DNA of 64,000 nt from Moniliella sp. 'wahieum'. Its lineage: Eukaryota. The notes beneath the pieces were generated by a model. It saw nothing but the letters and a program-made list of their open reading frames with translations, ran no database searches and was not told the DNA's origin. The translations under genes were made by a program, and so were the position numbers. This document shows positions 34,736 to 61,057 of the stretch, one piece after another (position 1 is the stretch's first letter; the number at the start of each line of letters is the position of its first letter). Location: positions 1 to 64,000 of the forward strand of contig RSEE01000117.1 of the NCBI GenBank assembly GCA_003971905.1. Direction: 5' to 3'.

Positions 34736-37102
34736 ATGCTGCGCCCCTCGATCGCCACCACGGGACGTCTGTCCCTGTGCCGCCCCCGTGTGTGCGCACG
34801 CACCTCTGCCGCGGCCCCCCGCCTCCTCTCCACCTCGGCCCGCGCCGCGCAGGCCACCCCGGCCGACATCAAGATGGTCAAGCTCACCGTCGATGGCAAG
34901 GACGTCGAAGTGCCACAAGGGTACGGTTTCTCTTTCATGTTCACCTTTCTCCCCCTCCCCCCCCCCCCTCTGCGCACCTAACCCTCCCCTTCCCGCCTGT
35001 TTGCCGTTACTAACTGCCTGTGCAGGACGGCGCTGATCCAAGCGTGCGAGCAGGCCGGTGCCCAGATCCCGCGGTTCTGCTACCACGAGCGCCTCAACGT
35101 CGCTGGCAATTGCCGTATGTGCCTTGTAGAGAGCAAGGGTGCGCCCAAACCGTTGGCTTCCTGTGCATTTCCCGCCATGCCGGGGCAGGTGATCAGCACC
35201 ACCTCCTCGGCCAAGGTCAACTCGTGGCGAGAAGGGGTGATGGAGTTCCTCTTGTCCAACCACCCGCTTGACTGTCCCATTTGCGATTGGGGTGGGGAAT
35301 GTGACCTGCAGGACCAGTCGATGCGCTACGGTGCGGACCGTGGCCGGTTCCACGAAGTCAAGGGGAAGCGAGCGGTTGAGGACAAGTACATGGGACCGTT
35401 GGTCAAGACGGTGATGACGCGGTGCATTCACTGTACCCGTTGTGTGCGTTTCTCCAACGAGATTGCGGGTGTGCAGGAGATGGGGACGACGGGACGAGGG
35501 AACGATTTGCAGATTGGCATGTATGTGGAACAGGTGCTCAACTCGGAACTATCGGGCAACGTGATTGATCTGTGTCCGGTGGGTGCGCTGACGAGCAAAC
35601 CGGGTGCGTTCCATTCGCGTCCATGGGAATTGAAGAACACGGAATCGATTGATGTGCTTGACGCGGTTGGGTCGAACATTCGTGTGGATTCGCGTGGCGT
35701 GCAGGTCATGCGCGTCTTGCCGCGCACCAATGACGATGTGAACGAGGAATGGATCAATGACAAGACGCGCTTTGCCGTCGATGGTCTCAAGTACCAGCGC
35801 CTTACCGCCCCGCTCATTAAACAGGGCGACCGTTTCGTCCCAGCCACCTGGCCCGAGGCACTAGCGTCCATTGCTGCTGGGTTGATCTCGACCCAGGCGG
35901 AGGGAAATGAGATCAAGGCGGTGGCAGGTGCGTTGGCGGACACCGAGTCGCTCGCTGCGCTCAAGGACCTGGTGAACCGTCTTGGTTCCGACAACACTGT
36001 TGTTGACCTGCCCGGCGGCGACAAGCCGAGCATCAACGGTGTCGATATTCGTTCCAACTACTCGTTCAACGCTGGCATTGCTGGTATTGAGGACGCGGAT
36101 GTGGTTCTGTTGGTCGGAACCAGTCCGCGGCACGAAGGCACGTTGGTCAATGCCCGACTGCGCAAGGCCTTCCTCCGTCTGGGTCAGGACTTGGGCTTGG
36201 TAGGCGAGCCAGAAGACTTGACGTACGACTATGCTCATGTGGGCACGGACGCGACGGCGCTGCAGGAGGTTCTGACGGGCTCTTCGGAGTTTGCTCAAAA
36301 ATTCCAGGCGGCCAAGAAGCCCATGATCATTGTTGGCAGTGCCGTGTTGGAAAACCCGGATGGGAAGCACATTCTCAGTGGCATTGCCAGCACATTAAGG
36401 ATCATCAAGACCAGTTCCTCACGCCCGATTGGAACGGATTGAGCCTTCTGCAACGCACGGCCTCCCGCAACGGTGCGAACGAGCTTGGCTTTGCTCCTTC
36501 TCAGGAAGCCGAGAAGACGGAACCCAAGTTCATTTACCTGCTCAACGCAGACGACTTTGACCCTACTTCGATCCCCGAGGAGGCGTTTGTAGTGTACCAA
36601 GGCCACCACGGCGATGTGGGTGCGCAGTATGCGGACGTGGTCCTGCCCGGTGCGGCGTACACCGAGAAGAGCGTGACGTACGTCAACACTGAGGGCCGCA
36701 CTCAGCTTACCCGTGCCGCTGTGCCACCGCCCGGGGCGAGCCGGGAGGACTGGAAGATTGTACGGGCGCTGTCCGAGGTGCTGGGTGTAACGCTACCGTA
36801 CGACAGTACGCTGGAGCTGCGGGACCGGCTGTTTGACCTGTCTCCGACGCTGGTGCGGTACGATGTTGCGGAAACCACTGGTCCTGCCACTGCGCGTGTT
36901 GGGTCTGGACCAGCTGATTGCCTGTGGCAGCCTGGCCGAGGCCAAGGGTGTGCCGCTGGTCAATCCGATCAAGAACTTTTACCAGACCGACCCGATCAGC
37001 CGTGCGTCGCCAACGATGGTCAAGTGCGTCAAGGCCTTTATTGAGAAACTGCCGCAGGAGCAGATTGAGGATCCGCTGCCACCCCATGCGCGTCTTGGGT
37101 AA
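34736..37102 (+). CDS. NDUFS1: NADH:ubiquinone oxidoreductase 75-kDa Fe-S subunit (complex I)
   Basis: Mitochondrial presequence, IPRFCYHERLNVAGNCRMCLVE, NHPLDCPICDWGGECDLQDQ, MTRCIHCTRCVRF, GNVIDLCPVGAL and YVNTEGRTQ; intron 34921-35025. Confidence 0.97.
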
Positions 37103-41411: not shown

Positions 41412-43392
41412 ATGCGCCTCTTCTTCCAGCCGGGCGCCGCGCGCTGCCTGCCGCTGCCCTTGCTGCCGCCCATCCGCCGCGGCCCTTGCGCCTGCCCCCC
41501 ACCTTCCCCGCCCGCTCCCCCGCACTGCCGCCGCCGCCCCCCCGCCCCCGCGCCCAAGCGGCACCGGGGCCTCCGTCTTCTGCTCGGCCTGGGCGTGGCG
41601 CTGGGCTTGGGGTGGCAAGCCGACCAGACGTGGAACTGCACGCTCGAACGCACCATCCGCGTCCTGTACATGGGCCTTGTGCTGGCTGCCGACTACAAGC
41701 TCAACTTTGACCCCGACTCGCTCCCCGCGATCGAAGCGTTGCACGAGCGCAGTGCGCGCATACTTGCCATGTGCGAGCGCAACGGGGGCTTGTACGTCAA
41801 GCTCGGCCAGGCCATTGGGAGCAACGCGGTCATCCTCCCGCCGCCGTACAAGCGCCTAGCCAAGCTCTTTGACGATGCGGAGAAAATGCCGTTTGAGACG
41901 GTGCGCAAGGTGGTGGGGCAAGAGCTAGGACGCGCATTGGAAGAAGTGTTTGTCGAATTTGATCGAGAACCCGTGGGTGCAGCATCGATTGCACAGGTCC
42001 ACGTCGCTCGTCTGCACCCGTTGCCAGGACAGGAACAAGGCCAAGTCGTCGCGGTCAAAGTGCAACGACCTGAGATTCGCAAACAGGCCAAGGCGGATCT
42101 GTGGTGCTTCCGTGTCCTGGTTCATCTGTACGAGCGAATATTCGAGCTGCCCCAGTCGCCGGCTGCGCAGTACAGTCATCAGTGACCAGATTGAAGTACG
42201 TTGGGCCCTGTCTCCTCTTCGTTTCACCCTTGGGGCTGGTGCGTAGCCCAACTGCAACTGACCCCACCCACCCTTGCCTCCTTTTTTTTAGAAAGAGACG
42301 CGATTTGACCTCGAGGCTGCTAATGCCCGCCTGGCACGGGAGGGCGTCCAGCACAGTCCTACCCCCATTGTGCGCAACACGTGCTACGTGCCCTGGGTAT
42401 CCGAGCAGTGGACCACGCCGCGCATGTTGGTCGAGGAGTACATTGGTGATTCGTGCAATCTGATCGATCGGGAGGCGATGGGTCGCATGGGTGTATCCAA
42501 CAAGGCCGTCGCTCAAAGTGTGATGGAGGTCTTTGCGGACCAAATCTTTCAGAGCGGGTTTGTCCAGGCTGACGGCCATCCAGCCAACATTTTGGTCCGG
42601 CAACATCCGCACTGGCGACCACGCTGGTGGCACAGGTGGGGGCGGGGGTACGTGCCGCACCAAGTCGTGCTGATTGACCATGGGTTGTATGTCCGTCTCT
42701 CGCCGCAGTTCCGCAGGGAATACGCAGAACTCTGGCGCGCGATTTGGGAGGTGGACATTCCTGTCCTGGAGCGCATCACGACCGAGTGGGGCATGGACCC
42801 TTCCTCGGCCGATCTGTTTGCGTCGGTGACCCTGATGCGTCCCTGGAGCCGGGGGAAATCCAAAGAGCCCGCCCGGCCCAGGACGAGCGAACTAGAGCGC
42901 GCTCGGAGGATGAAAGAGACGCTGAAATCGTTTCTGGTCAACGTAGACCTGGTCCCAATGGAACTCATCTTTGTCAGTCGCGCCCTGCGCATCGTTCAAG
43001 CCAACAACCAAGCTCTGGGATCGCCCGTCAACCGACTCAACATTCTTGCCCGCCATGCGGCCGATGCGCTGATCCAAGAGCGCACAGCCACCCTCTGGCG
43101 CGTGCTGTTTGCCCCGCCGGGGTCAGAACGCCTTAGCGCCCGGTTGGCCGAATGGGCACACAACCGCCAGGCGTACTTGACGTTCCATTTCGTGCTGGTG
43201 CTGGTGGGTGTGGCGTTCCAGGTGTCGCGAATAACGCACTGGTTCCGCTGGGTGTTTGCTCTGCCGCTCGCGTACATCGGCGCAGCGAACCCAGCCAAGC
43301 AGGGTGGGTTTGAGGATGACCTCGAGATCCAGATGCGGGAGCTGGCCCGCAGCGAGTTTGGGGTGGAGCTGGACGAAGACTCGTTTGTGTAA
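41412..43392 (+). CDS. ABC1/UbiB/ADCK atypical kinase (ADCK1/Mcp2-like, probably mitochondrial)
   Basis: NGGLYVKLGQ (KxGQ), GAASIAQVH, VAVKVQ, ADGHPANILV and LIDHGLY; intron at about 42196-42290. Confidence 0.92.
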
Positions 43393-46426: not shown

Positions 46427-49400
46427 TTACAGGTTGGCATCTTCGATCGACTCGACCGGGTCGTAGCCGGGCAAGCGGTTCTTGTCCAAACGGGTCGGTG
46501 CCCGCGCTGGTAGTGGAGGAATGAGAGGCATGCGTAGGTGCGCCGAGTGGGATCTCGGCTGGGTTCCAAAACGAGCCGGAGGAGGAAGCGGAAGCCGAAG
46601 CTGAAGCCGAAGCCGAAACTGAACCTGAACCTGAACCTGAACCTGAAGCTGAAGCTGAATGGCCCGGTTCATCCGAGGGAAAGAAGTTCGGACCTGCGTC
46701 GGCTGCTGCGTGAACTAGCGCGTAAGGTCAAGCTAGTTCGTTTGGATTCCAATTGGACCAAAGTTTGTTCGAGTTGGTGTTGGATGCGAGCGATTTGATC
46801 AGCGACGACGGCGGTCGTACGTTTTGGACTTCGGATTGGATGCGGCCTTCGTCTGTGGACGCATGGCCCTGGCCCGATCCCACATCTTCATCTAACAGTG
46901 CAAGACTCATTCTCGATACGCCAGCGTCGGCATGGCTGTCGAAGGAACTACTTCCGATCGCGCCGCGTGCGGAGAGGGAGTCGGCAGACGATGGCCTTGG
47001 CCTCGCGGGAGAGATTCCTCCAGCCCGCCAGGGAGGGGAAGAAGTGTGTCCGTGTTGGGACGAAGGGCCGAGGGAAGACGCTGGGGAGGGCAGCACGTCC
47101 TGTGCGCCATCCATCAACGAGCGCATTTCCACCACCATTTGTTCTCGTTCGGAGCTGAGGGCGCGCATGGCTTCTTGCATCTGAGTGAGTTGGGCTTGAG
47201 CTTGTTCGCGTGCGGCCTCAGTTTCCTTCAACTGAGTTTGGAGGGCAAAATGTGCACGTCGCGCTGGTGAGCGCACGAGAGAGACTAATGCTCTCCTTAC
47301 GTTGTCGATCAAGACGTGCACGTAAACCCGTGGCTTCCTGGGTCAAACGAGCGACCAAGGACTGAATTTCGTCCACGCGTTCCCGCCACGTTTCCGATTC
47401 AGTCAACAAAAATACCAGCCGCTTGTGCAGTCGTCCAATCCTACTCTCCAGCCGATCCCTCGTATCGACAAACTCATCAATCCGCGTTCGTACCGTCACC
47501 TCTGCCTCGGTCGGCGCAGCAGGCAAGACCATCTTTTCTTTTTGCGTGTCAAGCCGGCTTTTTCCAACACGCTACGCAACGTGCCTGATCGCGGCGCTTC
47601 TCCCAACGCGCGGTCCAACGCACCAAACACCGCACACGCGTCCCACCACGTAGGCGGGGCGAGCGGGTCGTAGGGACTGTCTTCCGTTTTGCTTAGCGGA
47701 CGGAACGCGCCCGAGGGAAAGGCGACAGTCAATTCCTTCGCTGGCGTTTGCCGGTTCCACGTTTTCATGCTTTCGTTCGGGAAAACGGCATAGAGATGGC
47801 GCATACGACGAGCGCGCAGTGCGCCAGTGGAAGGGAGGTGCGCAGGGAAGCGTTTGGCTTCAACACTGGTTGCGATCTAGATTGACAATGCACACTTCGG
47901 GACCCAAGGTGAGCGAAGGCAAAATGTACGTTGCAACACCGATGAGCCAACTGCCTGGATCGGCACAGTGGAAGCGCGCGTCACGCGCATGACAGGTAAA
48001 GTGCACTGCGCCTTGCCAGCTGCGCAGCCCGACCAACGTCTCGGCCGTGACGACGGCCAAGCTGACCAAAGATTCGTACTGTGACGTGAAGAGGACTTTG
48101 CCGCCCGGGCTCAGGGCACTTCGCACAGGGTCAAATGTGGTCCAGGGCCAAGGTTTTAAACAGGGGCCAAATGGCAAAATCGCAATTGGCTGCCAACTGG
48201 GCGGGCGAAGCGCCTTGTTCGCCCCAACAGTTGGCAGGCGGCAGAGGAAAAGGCATGGTGGCCTGTAGTGCCATCTCGCTCTCTGGACCGGGAAGCACAA
48301 TGGGCCAACCGGAAGGCGGGGCGGGCTGCTCCAACAGACGCAGCATGAGCGCTTGGTGCTTGTCCATCTGACGACTGTACAAACAACCAGGCGAGCTTGT
48401 TGAGATCGCCAAGTAAGTTGAACAGCGGGTGGATGGAGAGGAGGCAGAGTGCATAGGGAATGTACAGTGGTGCACCATCGTCATTGGCCAGCGGGGAGGA
48501 GGAGAGGTCTGCTGGCCAGCTCGGTTCGAATGCTCTCTCTCCGCTGTGCATCAGCGGCTGACCAGACAGTCAAGACGACGCCATAAAAGCGCACGGTCCG
48601 CTGGGCGGCAGTGAGGCTGCGCAAAGCCTTGCCAGGCTGGTTGGCGCTTCGATGGGTGCCTGGCAGTTGAAGAGGTGCAGACGAGCTTGAGGTTTGGGGC
48701 CAGCCATAACCTCGACTTCGCGGGTAAAGGACAACTGAGCGCTTTGGCCATCAACTTGGACGTCAGTACCCGATCTGTGCCCCCGGCACATTGGGGATCT
48801 CGATCAGCTTGGCGGCCTTGTCGGGCTCGGTGGTGGAGGTGTGGACAGAGGAGGCAGAGCACCCAAGTACCTCGGGCCGCAAGAAGCGCGGGATGGCGCC
48901 GGGGGTGTGGGTCGTGCCCTGCACCGAGTCGGACTCGGTCATGGTCCACATCGAAGGAGCCTTGGGTAGCTAGAAGAATGGTGGCGCAACAGGCATGCCG
49001 GGTCAGATCTCAGAAGAAGGTGAGGAGGGAAGGGATGGGATGGGAGGCAGACAGGACGTACGCCAAAGATAACGAGAGCTGGGCCAAGGTGCTGGGTTTG
49101 TGGGCGGTGGCCAGGACCTGGTTTTCGACGCGGATGCGCGCCTCGAGGCCGAGATGGGCGGGGTGGGGAGGTGGGCGGAGGAGGGCAGGGGGCCCGAGTA
49201 GGGCGACAGGGGCTTGGCGGGGAACGCATTCACGTCGGCCGAGAGACGGAGGGGGGAGGGGACGGGCACGGCCGAGGGTGGGTCGGCGGGGGCGGGGGCG
49301 GGGTTGTGGGGGCCGGGGATGGGGATGGGCATTTGGATTTGGATTTGGACTTGGATTGGCAGGGGCAGGGGCGGGGGGCGGCGTGGGGAGGGGCTTGTTG

Positions 49401-49502
49401 ATGCGGGTGGGGGGGGCTGGCCTGGGCCCCTGTCGGGCTCGAGGGAGGGCACGACGAGGGCATGAGCGCCGACGACGACAGAAGCGACGGCGACGACGGC
49501 AT
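46427..49502 (-). CDS. DENN-domain protein with C-terminal coiled coil (putative Rab GEF; frameshifted, ends approximate)
   Basis: FYGVVLTVWSAAD (uDENN), YIPYALCLLSIHPLFNLLGD, DFAIWPLFKTLALDHI, KVLFTSQYESLV, WQG, PGSWLIGV and VCIVNLDRN (cDENN), followed by coiled-coil ORFs 47218-47532 and 46728-47321; intron 49061-48970. Confidence 0.8.
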
Positions 49503-51343
49503 GGCCGGCCAGGCAGGCAGGCGAGTGGGCTGCGGTGAATATTCAGTTGAATGCTGCTGAGGCTCAAGGCAGCTCTGCTCTTTTGGCGCTCTCAGATCAG
49601 CATCTCAGGCGCAGCACCGACCGCCACCGCAGCGCCGATCATGTCCATCTCACTGGTCACCCTGCCACCCACCTCGTGCATGCCCCCTGCCCCCTGCCGC
49701 CGCCTCTGTCAGGCGCAAGCCACGGCGCCCACTCCGCCCACATCCACCGCCGCAGCTGTGCTCGCCTGCGCCGTGCCGCGCCGCTGCTCCCCCGTCTCAG
49801 CCATCAGCCGTCCCATGCATCATCCGTCATCCACCGTACTCCTCTCGCATCCATCTCCCGTCTCGCCCTGTGCGCCACGCGCGCTTCGCGCTTACCTTGG
49901 CGCTCAGCCGTAGCCCCGCCGCCAGCCCCCCGCCCACACACAGCCCCCCCGCCAGCGAGCGATCGGCACCAAGTCAGAGCAGGCACAGGGGCGCTGTGCG
50001 TGGGTGCCAGGCACACAGCGCACACCAGGCACACGTCTGGAGCGAGCACCGAGCAACGAGCAACCCTATCGACGATCCCTCTCCCTCCCCCCCTTTAAAA
50101 TTCAAATGAAAACGACGGTGGTAGTGTTACAGTCTTCCCGCCGCAGCAACTGCCAGGGTGTGGGGGGAGGATCGTCCAACCCCCCGACCAGCAACCTCCT
50201 GAAGAGGATACAGCGAGAGATGGTGTGCCCGCGGCCGCCGTTCCGCCTCTGTTCCGCCCACCTGACTCTTGGCGCCTCTCCAGGAGCTGTCCCCTGATTG
50301 CGTCCCCCACCACTTGTTGCCCTGCCTTGCTCGCCCCCACAGAATGGTGAGCGTTGATCCACCGGGTATCTGGCGTGTGTTTGGTCTACGTCCCTTCAGA
50401 CCCTCCTCAGGCCTGCGAATTCCGGTGTTCTCTGCTGCTGCTGGTTTCCTGCTCCGCAGCGTAGCCCTGGTGGCGGCTAGCTGCTTGATGTTCCTCTGGA
50501 GGCATTGCTGGTTGTTGGTTTAGACCGCCGCCGCCACCGGTGCGATTGCATCATCCTCGAGGTCCAGCAGGACTCCACGTCTCAGATCTCACCCGAGATC
50601 GAGTCACTAGTCAGAGAGTAGTCTCAACTAAGGTCAGTCCTGAGGCTCAGGACCGAGGGGGGTCTCCTGCTATATCTATTGTGCTCCTGCTGGTTCATAT
50701 CATGATACGTACTGCAGATGCCCCCCACGTAACCGGGTAACCCTTGCGCATCGTCTTTGTCTGGAGAAGAAGGACAAACAAGAAGCTGGCCAGAAAAGGA
50801 AAGAAGCCGATTGCGGCCCGCTGCCGCGAGAAAAATATATAGGAGGGGACGTGCGCCCTCCGCACCCGCCCGCTGATCGAGGCTTCGCCCAGCGCAGACA
50901 GGTGCAGTGCCTGGCCGCCGCCCAGCCCCCACCCAGCCCGCCCACCCTCCTTCGGCTGAAGTGGGGGCGGGTGGGCCAGAGCGTATGCGTGCCTGTTCAT
51001 GACGTTCATGCCATATGAATGGGTGCGAGCGTCGCCTAGCTGTGGCCCCACAGCCTCCCAAGCTCTCAAGCATCGCTTCCATCCTCTCTTCATTAGTACT
51101 TAGTCGCGATCGCATCGCATGATAATAATGCTTCAATTGCATCATACGCCCCTCCCCTCCACCGGAAGACAGAAGCTTATGCACCCCCATTCGCCACCGG
51201 CAGCCTCTCCAGCCCGCGTTCGCCGGTTAGCCTCCTCCGCCCCCACTGTACTGTACTCATTCCTGTTGTGGATATACCGTTGATGACGTTGATGGGATGG
51301 GTTGCGATGGGATGCATCGGCTACTGTGCTTCGCTCGGTGGGC

Positions 51344-51350
51344 TATAAAA
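51344..51350 (+). promoter_or_regulatory. TATA box candidate (TATAAAA)
   Basis: About 145 bp upstream of ATG 51489 and followed by a pyrimidine-rich leader. Confidence 0.45.
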
Positions 51351-51488
51351 GCCCATCCACCCTTCGTCCCGCCGACCCTGCCTCCCTGACCCGCCTCCGT
51401 TTCCCACCCTTCGCGCGCAACCTCCTTGTGACGACCCACCAGGCACCCTCACCACACGTCCCGTACCAACTCGTATTGTCTACCCGCA

Positions 51489-53689
51489 ATGTCTTCGTCC
51501 AGCATCTCCCTCTCCATCACTTCCTCCACCGCGACAGCGACGGTGAGTGAGGCGCTGAAAGCTTTGATTGCCAGCGCGCTAGCCCGGCTCAACGGCGCCG
51601 AGATACTCGAGTCGGCTCGGGCCCAAGTGGCACGGTACATCATCACGACGGCCGAAGCGCACCATGGTCTGTTCTGGCACTTTGTCATGGGCAGTGACTG
51701 GGTGTATGCGTCGCATGAACAAGTGCCTACCGGTCCGCGCCTCGAGGGTATCCTGCACTACCGTGGGGAAAACATCAAGTTCACTCTGTGGCAAACCAAA
51801 TGGAACGTGCGTGGCGTCACTTCCCTCGTGGGACCGCCACAGATCACCGCCTCCACCCTCCCGTCCCACATCCAGTCCCGCCTCCTCCTCCTGATCCAGG
51901 AACTGTACAGCGTGCATGGAGCCCAAGCCTCCGCTGTCGCACCGGTCTTTCTGGCCGATAGCCTCAATGCTACCTTTGGGCCCGGCTGGGTCGTCGCGGT
52001 GGGTACCACGGCCGTGTCGGTCTCGGCAAGTGCGTATGCTACATTTCGTACGTCTTCTTCGTCTTCCTCTTCTTCTTCGTCTTCCTTGCTTGTGGCGTAG
52101 ATATCCCCTGGTGGTGCACCACACCCATGCTAATCTGTCCTGATTGTCCAAACAGAGATTGGGAAGGACGTGTTCACCATCTGGAACGTCCCGGGCAGTT
52201 CGACGGGCCCCGAGAGTGACCAGAGCACTTCGCTCTACCTGACAGGAACCACCTTGACCAAACCTTCCGCCACTGGCACGCCCGTGGTGTCGCCCTCGCC
52301 TGCCCTGCCGCTCGGTCCGGAGCAGCCTCGCGGGTTGGAGCAGCCTCGTGGCTTGGAGCCGCACCGTCACCAGCCGAACCAGCAGACTGCTCCCCAGCCT
52401 AACTGGCAACCTGCTCTCCGCCACGTGTGGGGATAGTTGAGTTGGGCCCTCTTAAGACCACTGTGCAGCCCGAGCCTGTTATCGTGACCCCGCACCAAGA
52501 ACCGGTGGTTGATCTGCCTGTTGCGTTTCCGCAGCCCAACCAGCCGTCGGTGCCCGTGCCCAAGTTTAGTGGGTTGCGTAGCGAGCCTTTGGCTGCGCAG
52601 CTTAGTCCCCAGGAACATCCCTATACTGTTGCGCCTTCCCCGCAGACGATTGTTGATCTTGTGCCTCAGCCCGGGCACCATTCCCGCTCCCACTCTGACA
52701 CCTTCCAGCCGCAGGAGCCTGCCTCGCTCCCTCTTCCCCCGCCCCCTCTGGCCCGGAAGCAGGTGCGCTTCTGACCGCGCCTTCGAGCCAAGCTGTGACG
52801 CAAACGCAGCAGGCAGAATGGTCCGAGCTGCACGCGTCAAAAAACTCGCTGGTCGTGTCGGAGGCGTCGTTGGACAAACTGCGTTCGTCAATCGTAGTGG
52901 AGCGGACTAGTTTGGCGTCGGCCGAGCAGACGAAGGTGATCAATGTGGTCATCACTGTTCTGCTTCGTCACATCTCTGATGCCAAGTCCACCTCTTCGTC
53001 CGACTTGGAGGACCTCAAGCAAGCCATCTCGGCGCAGCTGGATGGGTGGCAAGTGCTGGTTGGACCGTACGGCTGCCACGTGAAAAGTGATGCCAAGAAC
53101 ATCATTGCGTTCTGTACGTCTCTACGTCTCTTTGTCTTGTCTGGCGGGGTACCATGCCATTTTGTGTCTGATCCCTCCTGGGTTGTCGGGTACTAACGTG
53201 TGTGGTTGTTTGTGGGTTCGTTCTTTGAATCTTGTAGCGATCGCGGGCTACTACATCGCCCTTGTTCGTCCCTCGCGGAGTACCATCAAGGTATCTCTAA
53301 CGAGTACGACTGCGAGTGGGAAGCACGTGGAGCAGACGGGGATTGTGGACCAGCTGGTGGATGGGCAGCACACTGGGCAAATCAAAGTGGTTGCATCGGA
53401 CTGGCACACTGGCAGTGACCAACTATCTGCGCGCCTCTACGGGATTATTGGGGGGGCCCTGCTTTCGTTGGAGAAGGATGGTCTGTCACTTGAACAGACG
53501 GCCGAGTATGTTAGTAAACGCGCTACGGCGATCGGAAACGGACGTTGGAAGTCCCTCATCTCCGAGACGCCGTTTGGCGAGTCGATCAAGTCGCTGTTTA
53601 CTGCGAGTTATGTCCTCGCTTCTGCCCGCCTGGGAGCCAAGACGTTCCATGTGGCGCTCTACCAGACCGGTCCGGCGTCCCACCTGTGA
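51489..53689 (+). CDS. Protein with four divergent dynein light chain LC8-like domains (2+2) and a Pro/Gln-rich linker
   Basis: Introns 52048-52155, 52763-52809/52812 and 53114-53237 all join in frame, with one frameshift near 52427. Each repeat follows the LC8 order strand-helix-helix-W-x-hydrophobic-G-strand-strand. Confidence 0.7.
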
Positions 53690-55517: not shown

Positions 55518-56867
55518 ATGCGCTTCCTCTCTCTCGCCAGTCTTCTGAGCGTGGGCCTGGCCTCTTCACCTTGGCTGCACCCTTGGGCTGGCCCGTGGAG
55601 CGGTCCAATGGGTACCCGGAGCCGTCCCAGGACCCATTCTATGCGGCCCCAAGCAACTTGAGTGCCTACAGCCGTGGGCAAATTATTCGTCGTCGGCCCA
55701 TCACCTCGCCTCTGGTCACTACCGCGAGCAAAGCCGAACAAATCGTGTACCGCACGACCAACACGCAAAACAAGCCTCCTGGACCGTCTCGACGCTGTTC
55801 ACTCCCTCCCAGCCTGCCGAGAACAAGGGGTTGTACGTGTGGCTTGCGTATGAGGATGCAGCGAACCTAAAGTGCTCCCCAAGCTACAGTTTGGCCGTTG
55901 GCTCGGCATTCCCAGCTTACCAAAGTACCGTGGACAACTTGACGGTAATCTCGTTGGAGTGGGCGCTGGGACGTGGGTTGTACGTCACAGTTCCGGATCA
56001 TGAGGGTCCTCACTCGGGCTTCCTGTCCGGGTACGAGGAGGGCTACGCGACGCTTGATGCGGCGCGTGCGTCTCTTTCGGCATTGGAGTTGGACCCCAAG
56101 ACACCCATTGCCCTGCACGGGTACAGTGGTGGTGGTCATGCCACGGTCTGGGCCGCGAACTTGGTCCCGTCGTACGGTTGGGATTTGAATGTGCTTGCCG
56201 CTGCGCATGGTGGTACGCCGATTGACATTCAGGCCACGGCGGAGATGGATGATAACACACCCACTGCCGGATCGATCCCATCGGCCTTGGCGGGCATCTT
56301 GGCTACGTACCCTAAGAAGTACCTCAAGGCATTTGAGAAGCACTGCAGCAAGAAGTTCCTGGATGCCTTGGCCTTTACTCAAAAGGATGGGGAATGCTCA
56401 ACGGCTGACGTGGTCACGTTAGCCAACACGAGCTGGATTGGAGAGTGCCACTTTACGCCTTCGTTCTGGACCTCGTCGACAATCAGTACCTGGCGCATCG
56501 GGAGTCGTTGTTGGCCAACCAAAGTTCCAGCGCGATTGGCGTGCCTCAGTTCCCACGCTTCATCTACCACGGTAGTGAGGACACTCGTATCCCCATCACG
56601 CCCGTCAAGTCCTATGTGCACCAACAGTGCGTTGCTGGTGGTGGGCCTATCCAGTTTGGCATTCTCAATGGCACCACACCACGGTGGGGCTGTTGGGTGC
56701 GCCGCAGGCCTTGCGCTTCCTCCAAGACGCGTTTGCGGGCAACACGTCTACCCCCGCGTGTGGTGAGGGGGCGATATCTTGACCCTTCAATCCCCGACCT
56801 GGCGCAGGTTCTCGGAGCTCCGACGGCCAAGGCGCTGTTGGAGCTGGCCGAGGCAGCTTCCAGCTAA
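55518..56867 (+). CDS. Secreted lipase (LIP / CAL-A-like family)
   Basis: Signal-peptide-like MRFLSLASLLSVGLA, PSQDPFY, QIVYRTTNTQ, YEDAANLKCSPSY, VPDHEG, ATLDAARA, GYSGG nucleophile motif and PRFIYHGSED. Confidence 0.92.
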
Positions 56868-58278
56868 GTTCAGGGCCACTCGCCCCGTTTACACTGTGGT
56901 CTCGCTACATTTTCTTTCTCCATACGCACACTCTCTGCCCGTGCATGTTACTGTGATATGATGTCTCTGGTATTGTGGGCAAATCCTAAGGAGGCATGAG
57001 TTACTCTCCCCATCAGATTCGACCAAACCCATTCTTTACCGCGACTGCACCTGGAACGTGATCGATGTCAATTTTTTCGTTTTGTATAGCTCTCCTTGTG
57101 TCTGAACGCACTTGTCCTCCATCTCGCACTTGCGATACCGTAGAAGCCTTTGAGGAGAGATAAGACAACGAGCTACTCTTTTTATTGTCGACATGTATAT
57201 GCATGGTGACGAAGGTGGGCAGAGGGAGGAAGAGGAAGAGGGGAAACAGTTATCGAGCCATCATGGGGTTACTCGTGCTCTTGATGATCAAGGTCGCTTC
57301 GGGCCCTCTTACTTAGGCTAGCTTCAGGCCGAGTCTAGGAGCTCCAGTCTTGTGTCGCTTCTGCTGTTGTCGTTGTTGCGCAGCCAGATGCGGTAGTCAC
57401 TACGGCGTCTGACTGATTTGGATGTGATGTGCTGTTGTGTGTGGTTTTGGTTGGCTACTGGCACCCGCACTACAGTCGCCGGCGGGTCTAGCTGTGATTT
57501 GGATGTGCTCTTGTCGTTTTGGTTGGCTACGCCCCCAACACTACACTCGTCGGATGTGGGATATGGGCGCTGGCGTGGACTCTTGCGCTTGGGCACACGC
57601 TGATGGTGGCACCATCAGGACCATGGGTGGTTCGAATGCATGCATGCATCGACGCTTGGGGCGTCGAGTTCAGTTCAACGTTCAACGTTCAAGCGGCCCC
57701 TGCAAGCGGAAGCTGAAAGCTGCAAGCGGGAATGGGGCAAAGGCCGTTGGGCGTACGTAAGCCTACCGAGCAAACCGAGCAATCTGCAGGGGCGCAGGCA
57801 GGCAGCGCGCGGCAGGAGCCCCGGGAGCAGCGCGTGCGCGGGCGGGGCCAACGCCTGGCACAACAGCGGTGATGTCATGCATGGAGCCCATGCGGTCGAT
57901 CGCAGATCATCGACCAACACGCCCAACGCTGACCGCGCACCGCTGAGGGATGGGTGATGATCGATGCGTGGTTGCTGGCCTCCGCCCGCGCTCGCACCAC
58001 ACCACTGTGCCGGCCAGTTGGGGTAGTAGCATGTGTGTGACCGGTGACCGGCTGGCCGCCCCCGCGCAACACCGCCCCCCCAGCGCATCACGTGAGCACA
58101 CACTGGGCGTGTGCCGCCGAGCGGAGCGGAGGGGCTTGCAGTTGCACTCTACGCTGCAGCTGGCGCTGGGCTGCTGCCCCTGCTGCCTGCTGGCCCTGCC
58201 CGCTTCTTGTCCCCGCTTTTTGGAGCGCTCTGCTCCTGCCCCACCACCACCGCCGCTGCCTCCCCTCCTGTGGGCGCC

Positions 58279-59765
58279 ATGGGCTTTCCCGAGCGCTATG
58301 CGCTCGACACACCCGCCATAGACGTCCACCGTCTCCCGCGGGCAATCAACCCCGTCGTCATCTGGGTCACACGCATGCTGCTCACCCTGTGCATTTGCGG
58401 TCTCTCGCTCGCCGTCCTGGTCGTCAGCTGCCTCACCGTCAAGGTAGGTCCCCCCCCCCCATGCACGACCTGCGTTTCTTTTGCCCCGTCCCTCCTTACT
58501 GACCCTCCTTGCAGTGGTACAACGACAATGATCCTATCGTCAAGCCCTCCTGGGGCTCCCTCATTCCTCATCATCCTCGGTGTCTGCACCCCCCTCATCT
58601 ACTTTGGGTACGACGTCGCCCTCCCTCTCGCGCCCTTTGTCCATCCGGGCGACATCCTTTACTGCCTGCTCGACGTAAAGGTCGAGATTGTGCTCCAGTT
58701 CTCCATGTGTGTCTTGTGGGTATCCGGCACCTTGGCCTACTTTGAAGATCTGGGCGGCAGGAGGCCTGTACCTTTGACTCGTACTACCACTATGCCAAGC
58801 CGAACGACTTTAACCATGTGTGTTCCTTCGCGACCTGGTATGGAAGTTGTCGTGGGCCACGTTTGCCATCCAGGTTTTCCTCTTCTTTTTCGAAGTGCTC
58901 GCCGCTGCCTACATCTTTTTTTTCTCGATCAGGAGGTCCTCAACGAACCTCACTATACTGGGGCAGGAGGGTACGACTTTCAAAAGGGCCGTCGCGCTTC
59001 GAAACAAGCATCACGCGCCACGCGTGCTAGTCGTACCCCTCCCCAATTTGCCTACAAGGATCACCCTCCTGCTTCCTATCGCCGTGCCGCCCCATACCGC
59101 GATTCTTCGCGAGACTACGACCGGCGGGACTACGACCAACGGGACTACGACCAGCGGGATTACGATGAGCGAGACTACGATGAGCGAGACTACGATCCTC
59201 AGGACTACGATTCCGAGGAGTATGATGCTCGGGACTACGATCCGCAAGACGTTGAGGATGCTCATGAGCATGCTGGCTCGGTCGTGTCCCGCTCGACGAC
59301 CCGGCACTCGCGTACGTCGGCCCGGCGTGGCGGCGGGTACAATGTAGGTACTCCAGCGGAGCCTACGCCATTTGAGGAGGAGATGCACGAAGCCGGACCC
59401 TATGTCGGTGAGGACGAGTGGGTTGGACGGTCGAGTTTTGCGAGAACCGCACCGAACGTGGGTACGAGACGACGCGGGTCTCCACTCGACCCCTTCGCTC
59501 CGGCTCGAGCGCGATCGCAAGCTCGTCGCGGGTCTGCCTATTACCGTGGCGGCTCGCAAGCTGCCACGTCGCGACGCGGGTCGTACTCGGACCTGACTTT
59601 GCGCTCAGCGCCTCGTCGACAAGCCAGCGGCGCGTCTCACACCGGGGAGCGTCGTATGCGTCGGAGCCACCTGCTGTGGACGAAGAGAGTGAGGTGGAAG
59701 ATGATTTACCTGCGCTCGGTACGCGCGGTCGACGGGCGTACCTTTCTGATTCAGATGAGGAGTGA
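58279..59765 (+). CDS. MARVEL-like four-TM membrane protein with RDYDx-repeat cytosolic tail
   Basis: Four hydrophobic segments after removing intron 58444-58514 and correcting frames; charged low-complexity tail ending AYLSDSDEE*. Confidence 0.65.
59109..59245 (+). repeat. 15-bp coding repeat (RDYDx)x~9
   Basis: CGRGAYTAYGAY-NNN units. Confidence 0.85.
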
Positions 59766-61057
59766 ACATGGGCCCGTTCCGTTTGCCCTCTCTCTCCTTT
59801 GTTACCCTCTTTTGCTCGAACCTATTCTTCTGCATTTCGCTTGTTCGTTATCGTACTTTGCATGACGCGCATTTGTGTACAGCTCGTCTCGAGATAAGAA
59901 GGGAGAAGGTAAATGCTAAGACGGCAGACATAAGGAATCGGTCTGGCAAAAACAAGGCTAGAGGCGGTGGCACGTTACCGCGCGGAAAAGGGCTCAACAA
60001 GTAGACGGGATCAAGTACAGGCCTAAGCGCTCCCAGCGAGGGGTGCATGCGTCCAACTGGTGCACCATCCCATTGTCCCTGGATGCTGAGCAGTACAGAG
60101 CCTTGGGGGACAAGTGGCCTCGCTGAAATACAGTCTTTCAGGGTAAAGCCGACAATTGCACGGCGGGCCAACGCTTGTTGTTTGCCGAATCCAATATTCA
60201 TGTGGATGGAGTGGGAAGAGATTCGCATGCCCAGGCTCAAATGTTTCAGCTTTCAGCTGCGATGAAGGAATTGGAGGCGCAGCGCACATCCTGTACGCCA
60301 CACATCATGTGCTGCGAGGAAACTTTTAGTACTTACGCGCCCATCTGCTCGTCACCATGTTCACGCCTGAGAAGCAGGCACCGTCACGCATGCAGACGAG
60401 CCGTTCCTGAGGCCTGATGCAAGCGATTGCAAGCTTGGTGCCTGAAAGCAACTGAGTAGCTAGTGGCGGTGCCATTCGATTACATTTTGTCAATGGTTCG
60501 TCTGCAACTGTTGTGAGCGGTACTGCCTGCTCCGCCCTTGTGGGATACATACCGTTGTCCTGCTCTCCTGAGGCGCCGTGCTGGCGGAGTACTGAGTACT
60601 CGTTGAGTTCAGCAGGATCAGGATGTGGTTGAGTTGAGTATTAGAGTACGGCTGATACTACTGCATTTCCCGGGTACCCGTCTCCCAGTACAACAACAAC
60701 AGTAACTCGATCTCACTGAAATGCTCATCTTTTGGGGGCTACTGTAGTACGACCTCGTCTACCTATTGGAACCGTGCCGCCCGTAATGCAAGCGAAGTGC
60801 AAATTAAAGTACAGAGAGAGCCGGAGGCCCATCCTTAGCTTTCTCTTTGTACACCAGGTCTGCGCCGATTGGTGTGGTCTTCTTTGGCAAAGGAGGAACA
60901 AAGCAGATATATCCTTGTGTCATTAGTAGGAATGCTATATTTCGGCGCCGCGGGTGGTCGTGCCATCGTCTCCCAAAGTACGTTCAACGATTTCTCTGTT
61001 GGTACGCACAATCCCCAATTATTCCCCAAGACAATGTGCCCAAGGGAATGTGCCCAA

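Follow-up and report, generated by a model that had tools for sequence, protein, structure and literature searches.

The stretch of DNA considered here (hereafter, the window) comprises 64,000 nucleotides (nt) of the forward strand of contig RSEE01000117.1 (positions 1 to 64,000; NCBI GenBank assembly GCA_003971905.1, Moniliella sp. 'wahieum') and is fungal. On its plus strand, at 51489-53689, it harbors a gene which, as read from the sequence, starts with the ATG at 51489 and terminates with the TGA at 53687-53689. On balance, the locus is best explained as one lineage-restricted fungal gene with two real introns and with assembly deletions in its central part, encoding a protein with multiple divergent copies of the LC8-type dynein light chain (DLC) domain; this explanation is favored, although by no means assured. 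The candidate domains are referred to below as D1–D4 in their order along the chain, and the numbers of exons and introns follow the five-exon model of the original prediction, in which four such domains were proposed. The features of the locus are collected in Table 1.

Gene Organization and Coding Signals

In exons 1, 2, 4 and 5, the G+C fraction at the third codon position (GC3) amounts to 0.73, 0.76, 0.73 and 0.68, respectively (0.71 in the gene for NDUFS1, taken from the same window for comparison), and the phase of the G+C content agrees with the frames of the model in the same four exons. The open frames 52403-52774 and 52699-53196, harboring the distal part of the linker and D3, contain no Met; because no in-frame ATG precedes D3, the D3–D4 part cannot start independently. 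Hence, two separate genes were rejected as an explanation, and a single gene, as had been proposed originally, is likely. The in-frame TAG that could mark a split was found where the original prediction had put it (52434-52436), and the four peptide segments quoted there can all be located, with frames and order as stated. The protein length of about 640 amino acids (aa) needs adjustment: the five-exon splice computes to 625 aa, and simple arithmetic gives ~656 aa for the variant with both central deletions (see below) repaired.

Table 1. Coordinates of the features recognized at the locus (all on the plus strand of the window).
Feature	Position	Strand	Remarks
TATA-like box TATAAAAG	51344..51351	+	138 nt upstream of the ATG; read from the sequence, putative function
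Exon 1	51489..52047	+	Starts with the ATG; covers D1 and the larger part of D2; phase-1 end following ..YATF; GC3 0.73; Pfam Dynein_light E 8.2e-6
D1, LC8-like domain 1	51489..51806	+	FWHFVMGSDWVYASHE core; Dynein_light is the top Pfam family
D2, LC8-like domain 2	51822..52196	+	Split by intron 1; Dynein_light is the only family for the exon-1 part
Intron 1, 108 nt	52048..52155	+	Phase 1; GTACGT donor, CTAAT branch site, CAG acceptor; GC 0.50
Pro/Ser/Gln-rich linker	52197..52869	+	Presumably disordered, judging by composition; three successive frames
First -1 frame switch	52403..52436	+	Frame overlap 33 nt; GGGG run at 52429-52432
Alternative to the first switch: 44-nt intron	52425..52468	+	GTGTGG..CAG; poor donor, no CTRAY branch site
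Second -1 frame switch	52699..52774	+	Frame overlap 75 nt; CCCCC runs at 52735-52739 and 52741-52745
Alternative to the second switch: 47-nt intron	52763..52809	+	GTGCGC donor, CTGAC branch site, CAG; GC 0.64, exon-like
TQT tripeptide	52798..52806	+	Context SQAVTQTQ; ~25 residues before D3; translated only if 52763-52809 is unspliced
D3, LC8-like domain 3	52870..53275	+	Split by intron 4; Dynein_light is the top family for the exon-4 part
Intron 4, 124 nt	53114..53237	+	Phase 1; GTACGT donor, CTAAC branch site, TAG acceptor; GC 0.49
D4, putative LC8-like domain 4	53378..53686	+	GRWKSLISETPFGESIKS core; pattern recognized by eye
Stop codon TGA	53687..53689	+	Sequence and open frames

Most likely, introns 1 and 4 are real and are the only two such introns in the gene. 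Their G+C content of about 0.50 is set off from that of the exons (~0.6), and splicing out of intron 1 restores the reading frame together with the final strand of D2. These introns cut D2 (..YATF/Q/IG..) and D3 (..IIAF/S/IA..) at an equivalent aligned residue, both in phase 1, and both of them start with GTACGTCT. Since the aligned position and the phase coincide, a common ancestry of D2 and D3 is hinted at, suggesting their descent from one intron-bearing unit.

A second possible donor of intron 1, GTGCGT, is situated at 52030, i.e., 18 nt 5′ of the preferred GTACGT and in identical phase. It was not preferred, since its use would delete six D2 codons (the SAYATF region) having a counterpart in D3; alternative splicing at this donor is conceivable. 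The 5′ part of the same intron (52050-52088) is a TCT/TCG-rich run which, if retained, would encode a poly-Ser tail ending at a stop at 52098-52100.

Frame Changes in the Central Part of the Gene

Reading through the linker region takes three open frames in succession (52134-52436, 52403-52774 and 52699-53196). Most likely, both central frame changes represent 1-nt assembly deletions, so that the central exon is continuous. This interpretation is favored because both switches are -1 switches, the frames overlap and runs of G4 or C5 are located within the overlaps, and also because two other genes in the same window, encoding the 75-kDa subunit of complex I (NDUFS1) and a secretory lipase (LIP), switch by -1 without room for an intron.

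In the NDUFS1 gene, the frame shifts by -1 between ~36380 and 36421, and the alignment to the solved homologues passes across this site free of gaps: in the alignment with 7zm7_A, residue 503 belongs to one frame, followed up to base 36379, and residue 508 to the frame that takes over at base 36391. A 1-nt assembly deletion is the likely cause of this frame change. The lipase passes from the open reading frame (ORF) 55549-56763 (profile positions 15-181) to the ORF 56409-56864 (profile positions 206-251), likewise by a -1 switch; at the site of the switch (56443-56519), only 77 nt of DNA are available for 24 profile positions, with no intron. A somewhat different situation is encountered in the ABC1 kinase gene (region 42146-42201), whose ORF ends with the TGA at 42183-42185, 10 nt before a GTACGT donor at 42196, and where a different frame, reading ..TVISDQIE as far as this donor, agrees with the exon that follows (KETRFDLEAANA). 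Here, one more error of the frame, this time by +1, may be involved.

A single long intron leading from exon 2 to exon 4 was rejected as well: 65 frame-keeping GT-AG solutions exist, none of them with a consensus-like donor. Overall, the four-intron splice model of the original prediction probably errs in its two central introns of 44 and 47 nt, which are better replaced by -1 switches of the kind found in NDUFS1 and LIP. A technical lesson to be drawn from this window is that what looks like a very short intron can be a 1-nt deletion in the assembly.

Similarity of the Repeats to LC8

The segments of the protein were compared with Pfam (24,736 families) and with a PDB set of 177,635 sequences; the Pfam scores given here were obtained exon by exon or domain by domain. 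Against the Dynein_light family (PF01221), D1 alone yields E 0.029 (15.2 bits, profile positions 33-67, top family), the exon-1 part of D2 yields E 0.032 (15.0 bits, positions 2-58, the only family matched) and the exon-4 part of D3 yields E 0.048 (14.5 bits, positions 2-74, top family). When exon 1 is taken as a whole, E improves to 8.2e-6 (26.5 bits) with two matching stretches, and E is 0.1 for the whole exon 4. Among the translations of 100 other ORFs of the window (at least 110 aa) taken as a control, none matches Dynein_light at E <= 0.1; 17 of them match something, spread over other families.

Profiles built from the repeats point in the same direction. The four-repeat profile retrieves three PDB matches at E <= 10, the top two of which are dynein light chains (9y6s_6E, E 0.083, and 7jtk_a, LC8 of Chlamydomonas, E 1.3); the ADMS-helix-helix-W..VG pattern is aligned with them in register, so that the W and the VG of repeats and light chains coincide. 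This Trp, which opens strand 2 in LC8, is kept in all four repeats, and the Gly five residues on is present in D1–D3 (Ser in D4); we take these residues to be W54 and G59 in LC8 numbering. The profile of D1–D3 retrieves only two PDB matches, 5fwz_A (E 0.35) and 5fx0_A (E 0.64), of which 5FX0 is described in passages of PMC12347358 as the DLC-like domain of Fasciola FhCaBP2. With the two profiles pooled, four of the five PDB matches represent LC8 or a DLC-like domain, including the best match of each profile. Taken jointly, these weak matches make a DLC-type fold of D1–D3 quite probable.

D4 is a putative fourth copy, recognized by a pattern discernible by eye: an IKVVASDW strand is followed by two helices and GRW..LIS, and parallels to the other repeats include PFGESIKS in D4 (PYGCHVKS in D3) and FHVALYQT in D4 (KFTLWQT in D1). 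Thus, the proposal of four LC8-like domains holds for D1–D3, where the Pfam and PDB profile matches are consistent albeit below threshold, and lacks statistical support for D4; the comparison of each segment with PF01221, recommended in the original prediction, returned this family on top and in register for D1, D2 and D3 and gave nothing for D4.

The Linker and the TQT Motif

In the spliced model, the linker spans 194 aa and is rich in Pro (20%), Ser (11%) and Gln (10%); its exons are devoid of Pfam matches. This composition accords with the disordered Pro/Gln linker of ~200 aa that was predicted originally. The TQT tripeptide found shortly before D3, if translated, recalls the motifs of LC8 clients, and its random occurrence is estimated at ~15%. 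The linker also features (52320-52355) an 18-nt tandem duplication, GAGCAGCCTCG(C/T)GG(G/C)TTG present twice, which encodes EQPRGL two times in succession.

Structure Models

In the low-confidence AlphaFold2 model of exon 1, built from a three-row alignment of the gene's own repeats, D1 (predicted local distance difference test score, pLDDT, ~51-55) is composed of the helices H18-35 and H41-57 and the strands E62-67, E71-78, E84-91 and E94-101. Two helices followed by four strands is the order of LC8, whose fold has a further strand in front of the helices.

The N-terminal part of D3 was also folded with exon 5 (i.e., the last D3 strand, the linker to D4 and D4 itself) in ESMFold2. The scores (ipSAE, interaction prediction score from aligned errors) reached 0.39, 0.40 and 0.51 in comparison with 0.00 for the best control, resulting in the verdict of 'weak support'; in the same runs, pLDDT was 64-70 for the partner and 61-82 for the other chain, and at least 78% of the contacts were shared between the runs. 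In the calibration of this test, 51 of 78 solved complexes attained the mark, as did 2 of 108 mismatched pairs, scores of 0.60 or below being those of only 5 of the 78 and of all 4 mismatches that passed. Since both chains are halves of one gene, passing this test signifies only that they fold together; the predicted assembly speaks for a common fold of D3 and D4 and not for a pseudo-dimer.

Neighboring Genes

By their domain matches, the neighbors of the gene in the window include a Fungal_trans factor, the secretory LIP lipase and the NDUFS1 subunit mentioned above, as well as Snf7, the ABC1 kinase, a GT4 glycosyltransferase, CENP-Q and DUF2828, along with a GATA factor, a cyclin and a BAR_2 protein. 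Since these are unrelated housekeeping genes, they give no hint of a functional cluster. Long open frames on the plus strand are situated on either side of the gene, at 58096-59862 (589 codons) and 48615-49535 (307 codons); both lack a Pfam match at E <= 0.1.

Comparison with Known DLC Proteins

Canonical LC8 is a free-standing, extremely conserved homodimer of ~89 aa. Similar to canonical LC8/DYNLL (PF01221), the family ranking first for each of D1, D2 and D3, the repeats display an ADMS-like strand, two helices, the W-x4-G motif and subsequent strands in register, and D1 retains W-H and the ..Y.SHE stretch. In contrast to it, three to four copies are found here in one chain of ~640 aa, each scoring ~15 bits, i.e., below the family cut-off, and the His after the Trp is retained in D1 only.

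In the dynein light-chain towers of axonemes, divergent LC8-like paralogues pair as heterodimers. This is the kind of pairing that a D1–D2 or D3–D4 pseudo-dimer would need, but the axonemal partners are separate polypeptides from ciliated organisms.

Another parallel is provided by the tegumental calcium-binding proteins of trematodes (FhCaBP/TAL family; 5FX0, 5FWZ), the only PDB matches of the D1–D3 profile. Passages of PMC12347358 present them as larger, lineage-restricted proteins harboring a divergent DLC-like domain and dimerizing through it. They differ in that they combine one DLC-like domain with EF-hands and are confined to trematodes, whereas the protein described here comes from a fungus and features several such domains and no EF-hand.

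In the literature listings, no natural chain with several LC8 domains was found, 'tandem LC8' standing there for tandem binding motifs. The full HMMER search with exon 5 against 1.84 billion representatives returned 0 matches, and the four-repeat profile found no relatives among longer proteins. These blank protein, metagenome and literature searches are consistent with the earlier statement that no characterized fungal protein has this architecture. As a property of the gene, its orphan status is weak and provisional, because no self-match was obtained either, the proteome of the organism being apparently absent from the collections searched.

Possible Organization of the Protein

The gene would encode a cytosolic protein of ~625-656 aa built from very divergent LC8/DLC copies, with the D1–D2 tandem at the N-terminus and with D3 and, probably, D4 at the C-terminus, the two parts being joined by a disordered Pro/Ser/Gln linker of ~195-225 aa. 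Canonical LC8 completes its fold and its sheet only as a strand-swapped dimer; by analogy, D1 may pair with D2 and D3 with D4, forming covalently tethered asymmetric pseudo-dimers. According to passages of PMC12347358, the DLC-like domains of trematodes dimerize in the same way as LC8. Pairing between neighbors, with tethers of ~10 residues between D1 and D2 and ~35 residues between D3 and D4, would be the simplest arrangement. Each pair would then offer non-identical grooves for linear motifs capable of forming a beta-strand, and the whole protein might act as a two-headed adaptor or scaffold. The sequence itself shows the gene, its frames and the sub-threshold DLC likeness of D1–D3; the fold of D4, the pairing of the domains, the binding of ligands and the cellular role are what we infer here, and the assignment of each is to be read as conditional.

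There is also a slim chance that the TQT of the linker (SQAVTQTQ) is bound by the heads of the same or another molecule, in which case the protein might be an auto-inhibited adaptor or a scaffold assembling itself into chains or condensates.

Weighing the Evidence and the Alternatives

Several observations weigh against the reading of the locus as a single gene for a multi-copy LC8/DLC protein. No segment reaches the gathering cut-off of PF01221 (29.1 bits), the best one being exon 1 with 26.5 bits, and the single-sequence phmmer searches of the PDB, for which exons 1, 4 and 5 served as queries, brought no LC8 match. The repeats are marginally similar to one another: the best pair, D2–D3, gives z 2.8 (9 of 500 shuffles) and D1–D3 gives z 1.8, the remaining pairs being at z ~1 or less (z <= 1.05 for all pairs with D4); in the leave-one-out test with hidden Markov models, 357, 80, 517 and 634 of 2000 shuffles each scored at least as high as the real domains D1, D2, D3 and D4, respectively. 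For D4, in particular, there was no Pfam match at E <= 10 and no LC8 match by phmmer against the PDB, and hhalign of D1–D3 versus D4 gave P 0.07. Exon 1 has no relatives among proteins of longer or similar length, and the metagenome scans with exons 1 and 4 were blank. The mean AlphaFold2 pLDDT was low (42.6 for D4 from a single sequence, 42.1 for exon 1), and no LC8 was found among the best rows listed by Foldseek against the PDB and by the VIA-align wide search with these low-pLDDT models, nor did any other fold stand out; with models of this quality, such an outcome has no bearing on the fold. The stretch 52469-52762 departs from the coding pattern of the other exons: its G+C fraction at the first codon position (0.76) exceeds GC3 (0.66), the windows of G+C phase favor another frame, and a neighboring frame has GC3 of 0.75 and a single stop, so that what speaks for the model frame is its being the sole frame free of stops; we read the off-frame phase as a consequence of the many Pro and Gln codons. 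Finally, the steps of pairing and ligand binding are plausible by analogy alone.

Some of these points lend themselves to the explanation that the LC8 likeness arose by chance or from composition and that the product is an orphan alpha/beta protein with some other, possibly new, fold. The curated thresholds are not reached by any match, LC8 is absent from the single-sequence PDB searches as well as from the results of structure modeling and fold searches, and the repeats resemble one another hardly more than shuffles do. Nevertheless, three non-overlapping segments independently pick Dynein_light out of all the Pfam families in the correct register, none of the control ORFs does so, and two different repeat profiles retrieve only or mainly chains of DLC fold from the whole PDB set, while the low-confidence structure models are too poor to count against an LC8 fold. 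This explanation is considered improbable. A similarly low probability is assigned to the view that the frame changes are real and the gene is decaying or truncated, with a 279-aa D1–D2 product ending at the TAG at 52434 and with D3–D4 left as an untranslated relic or as a second gene. The in-frame TAG at 52434-52436 fits this view, as does the lack of relatives that could show the full-length form in use. However, the D3–D4 part, though devoid of an in-frame ATG, still possesses open frames, 101 and 149 codons long, whose GC3 is 0.73 and 0.68, and frame changes of this type are also found in essential or conserved genes of the window, which implicates the assembly rather than decay.

The gene model of the original prediction, i.e., five exons with real introns of 44 and 47 nt, a product of 625 aa and removal of the TQT stretch by splicing, appears unlikely but deserves more credit. 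Both short intron candidates have GT..AG ends and restore the open frame, the second of them (intron 3, 52763-52809) possesses a GTGCGC donor together with a CTGAC branch site, and, of the three frames of the 98-codon exon 3, only the one needed by the five-exon model is open. At the same time, the well-supported introns are 108 and 124 nt long and have GTACGT donors (a GTACGT..TAG candidate of 96 nt is present in ABC1), whereas intron 2 (52425-52468) is only 44 nt long with a poor GTGTGG donor and no CTRAY branch site, and intron 3 has an exon-like G+C content of 0.64. Moreover, the open stretches of the downstream frames begin as early as 66 and 111 nt ahead of the acceptors; such an overlap is required by a frameshift but not by an intron. 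The same -1 switch without room for an intron in NDUFS1 and LIP argues in the same direction. The preferred reading, therefore, is still that of a single gene with two introns and a continuous central exon affected by assembly deletions.

Implications

The practical value of this gene is limited at present, since it is an orphan gene from an indel-prone assembly with all its matches below the family threshold. Conceptually, LC8 is a tiny, almost invariant homodimer in which two identical grooves dimerize the clients. Against this background, a natural chain with three or four LC8-like domains would, if real, represent a rare fusion of this hub into asymmetric modules, the only comparable fusions that could be documented being the EF-hand/DLC proteins of trematodes. 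If binding of the linker's own TQT took place as well, this would mean that, in a fungus, gene fusion has turned the obligate LC8 homodimer into heterobifunctional modules. If the preferred reading is true, the protein would offer structural biologists a naturally occurring LC8 pseudo-dimer within one chain, on which the effect of groove asymmetry on the choice of clients could be studied.

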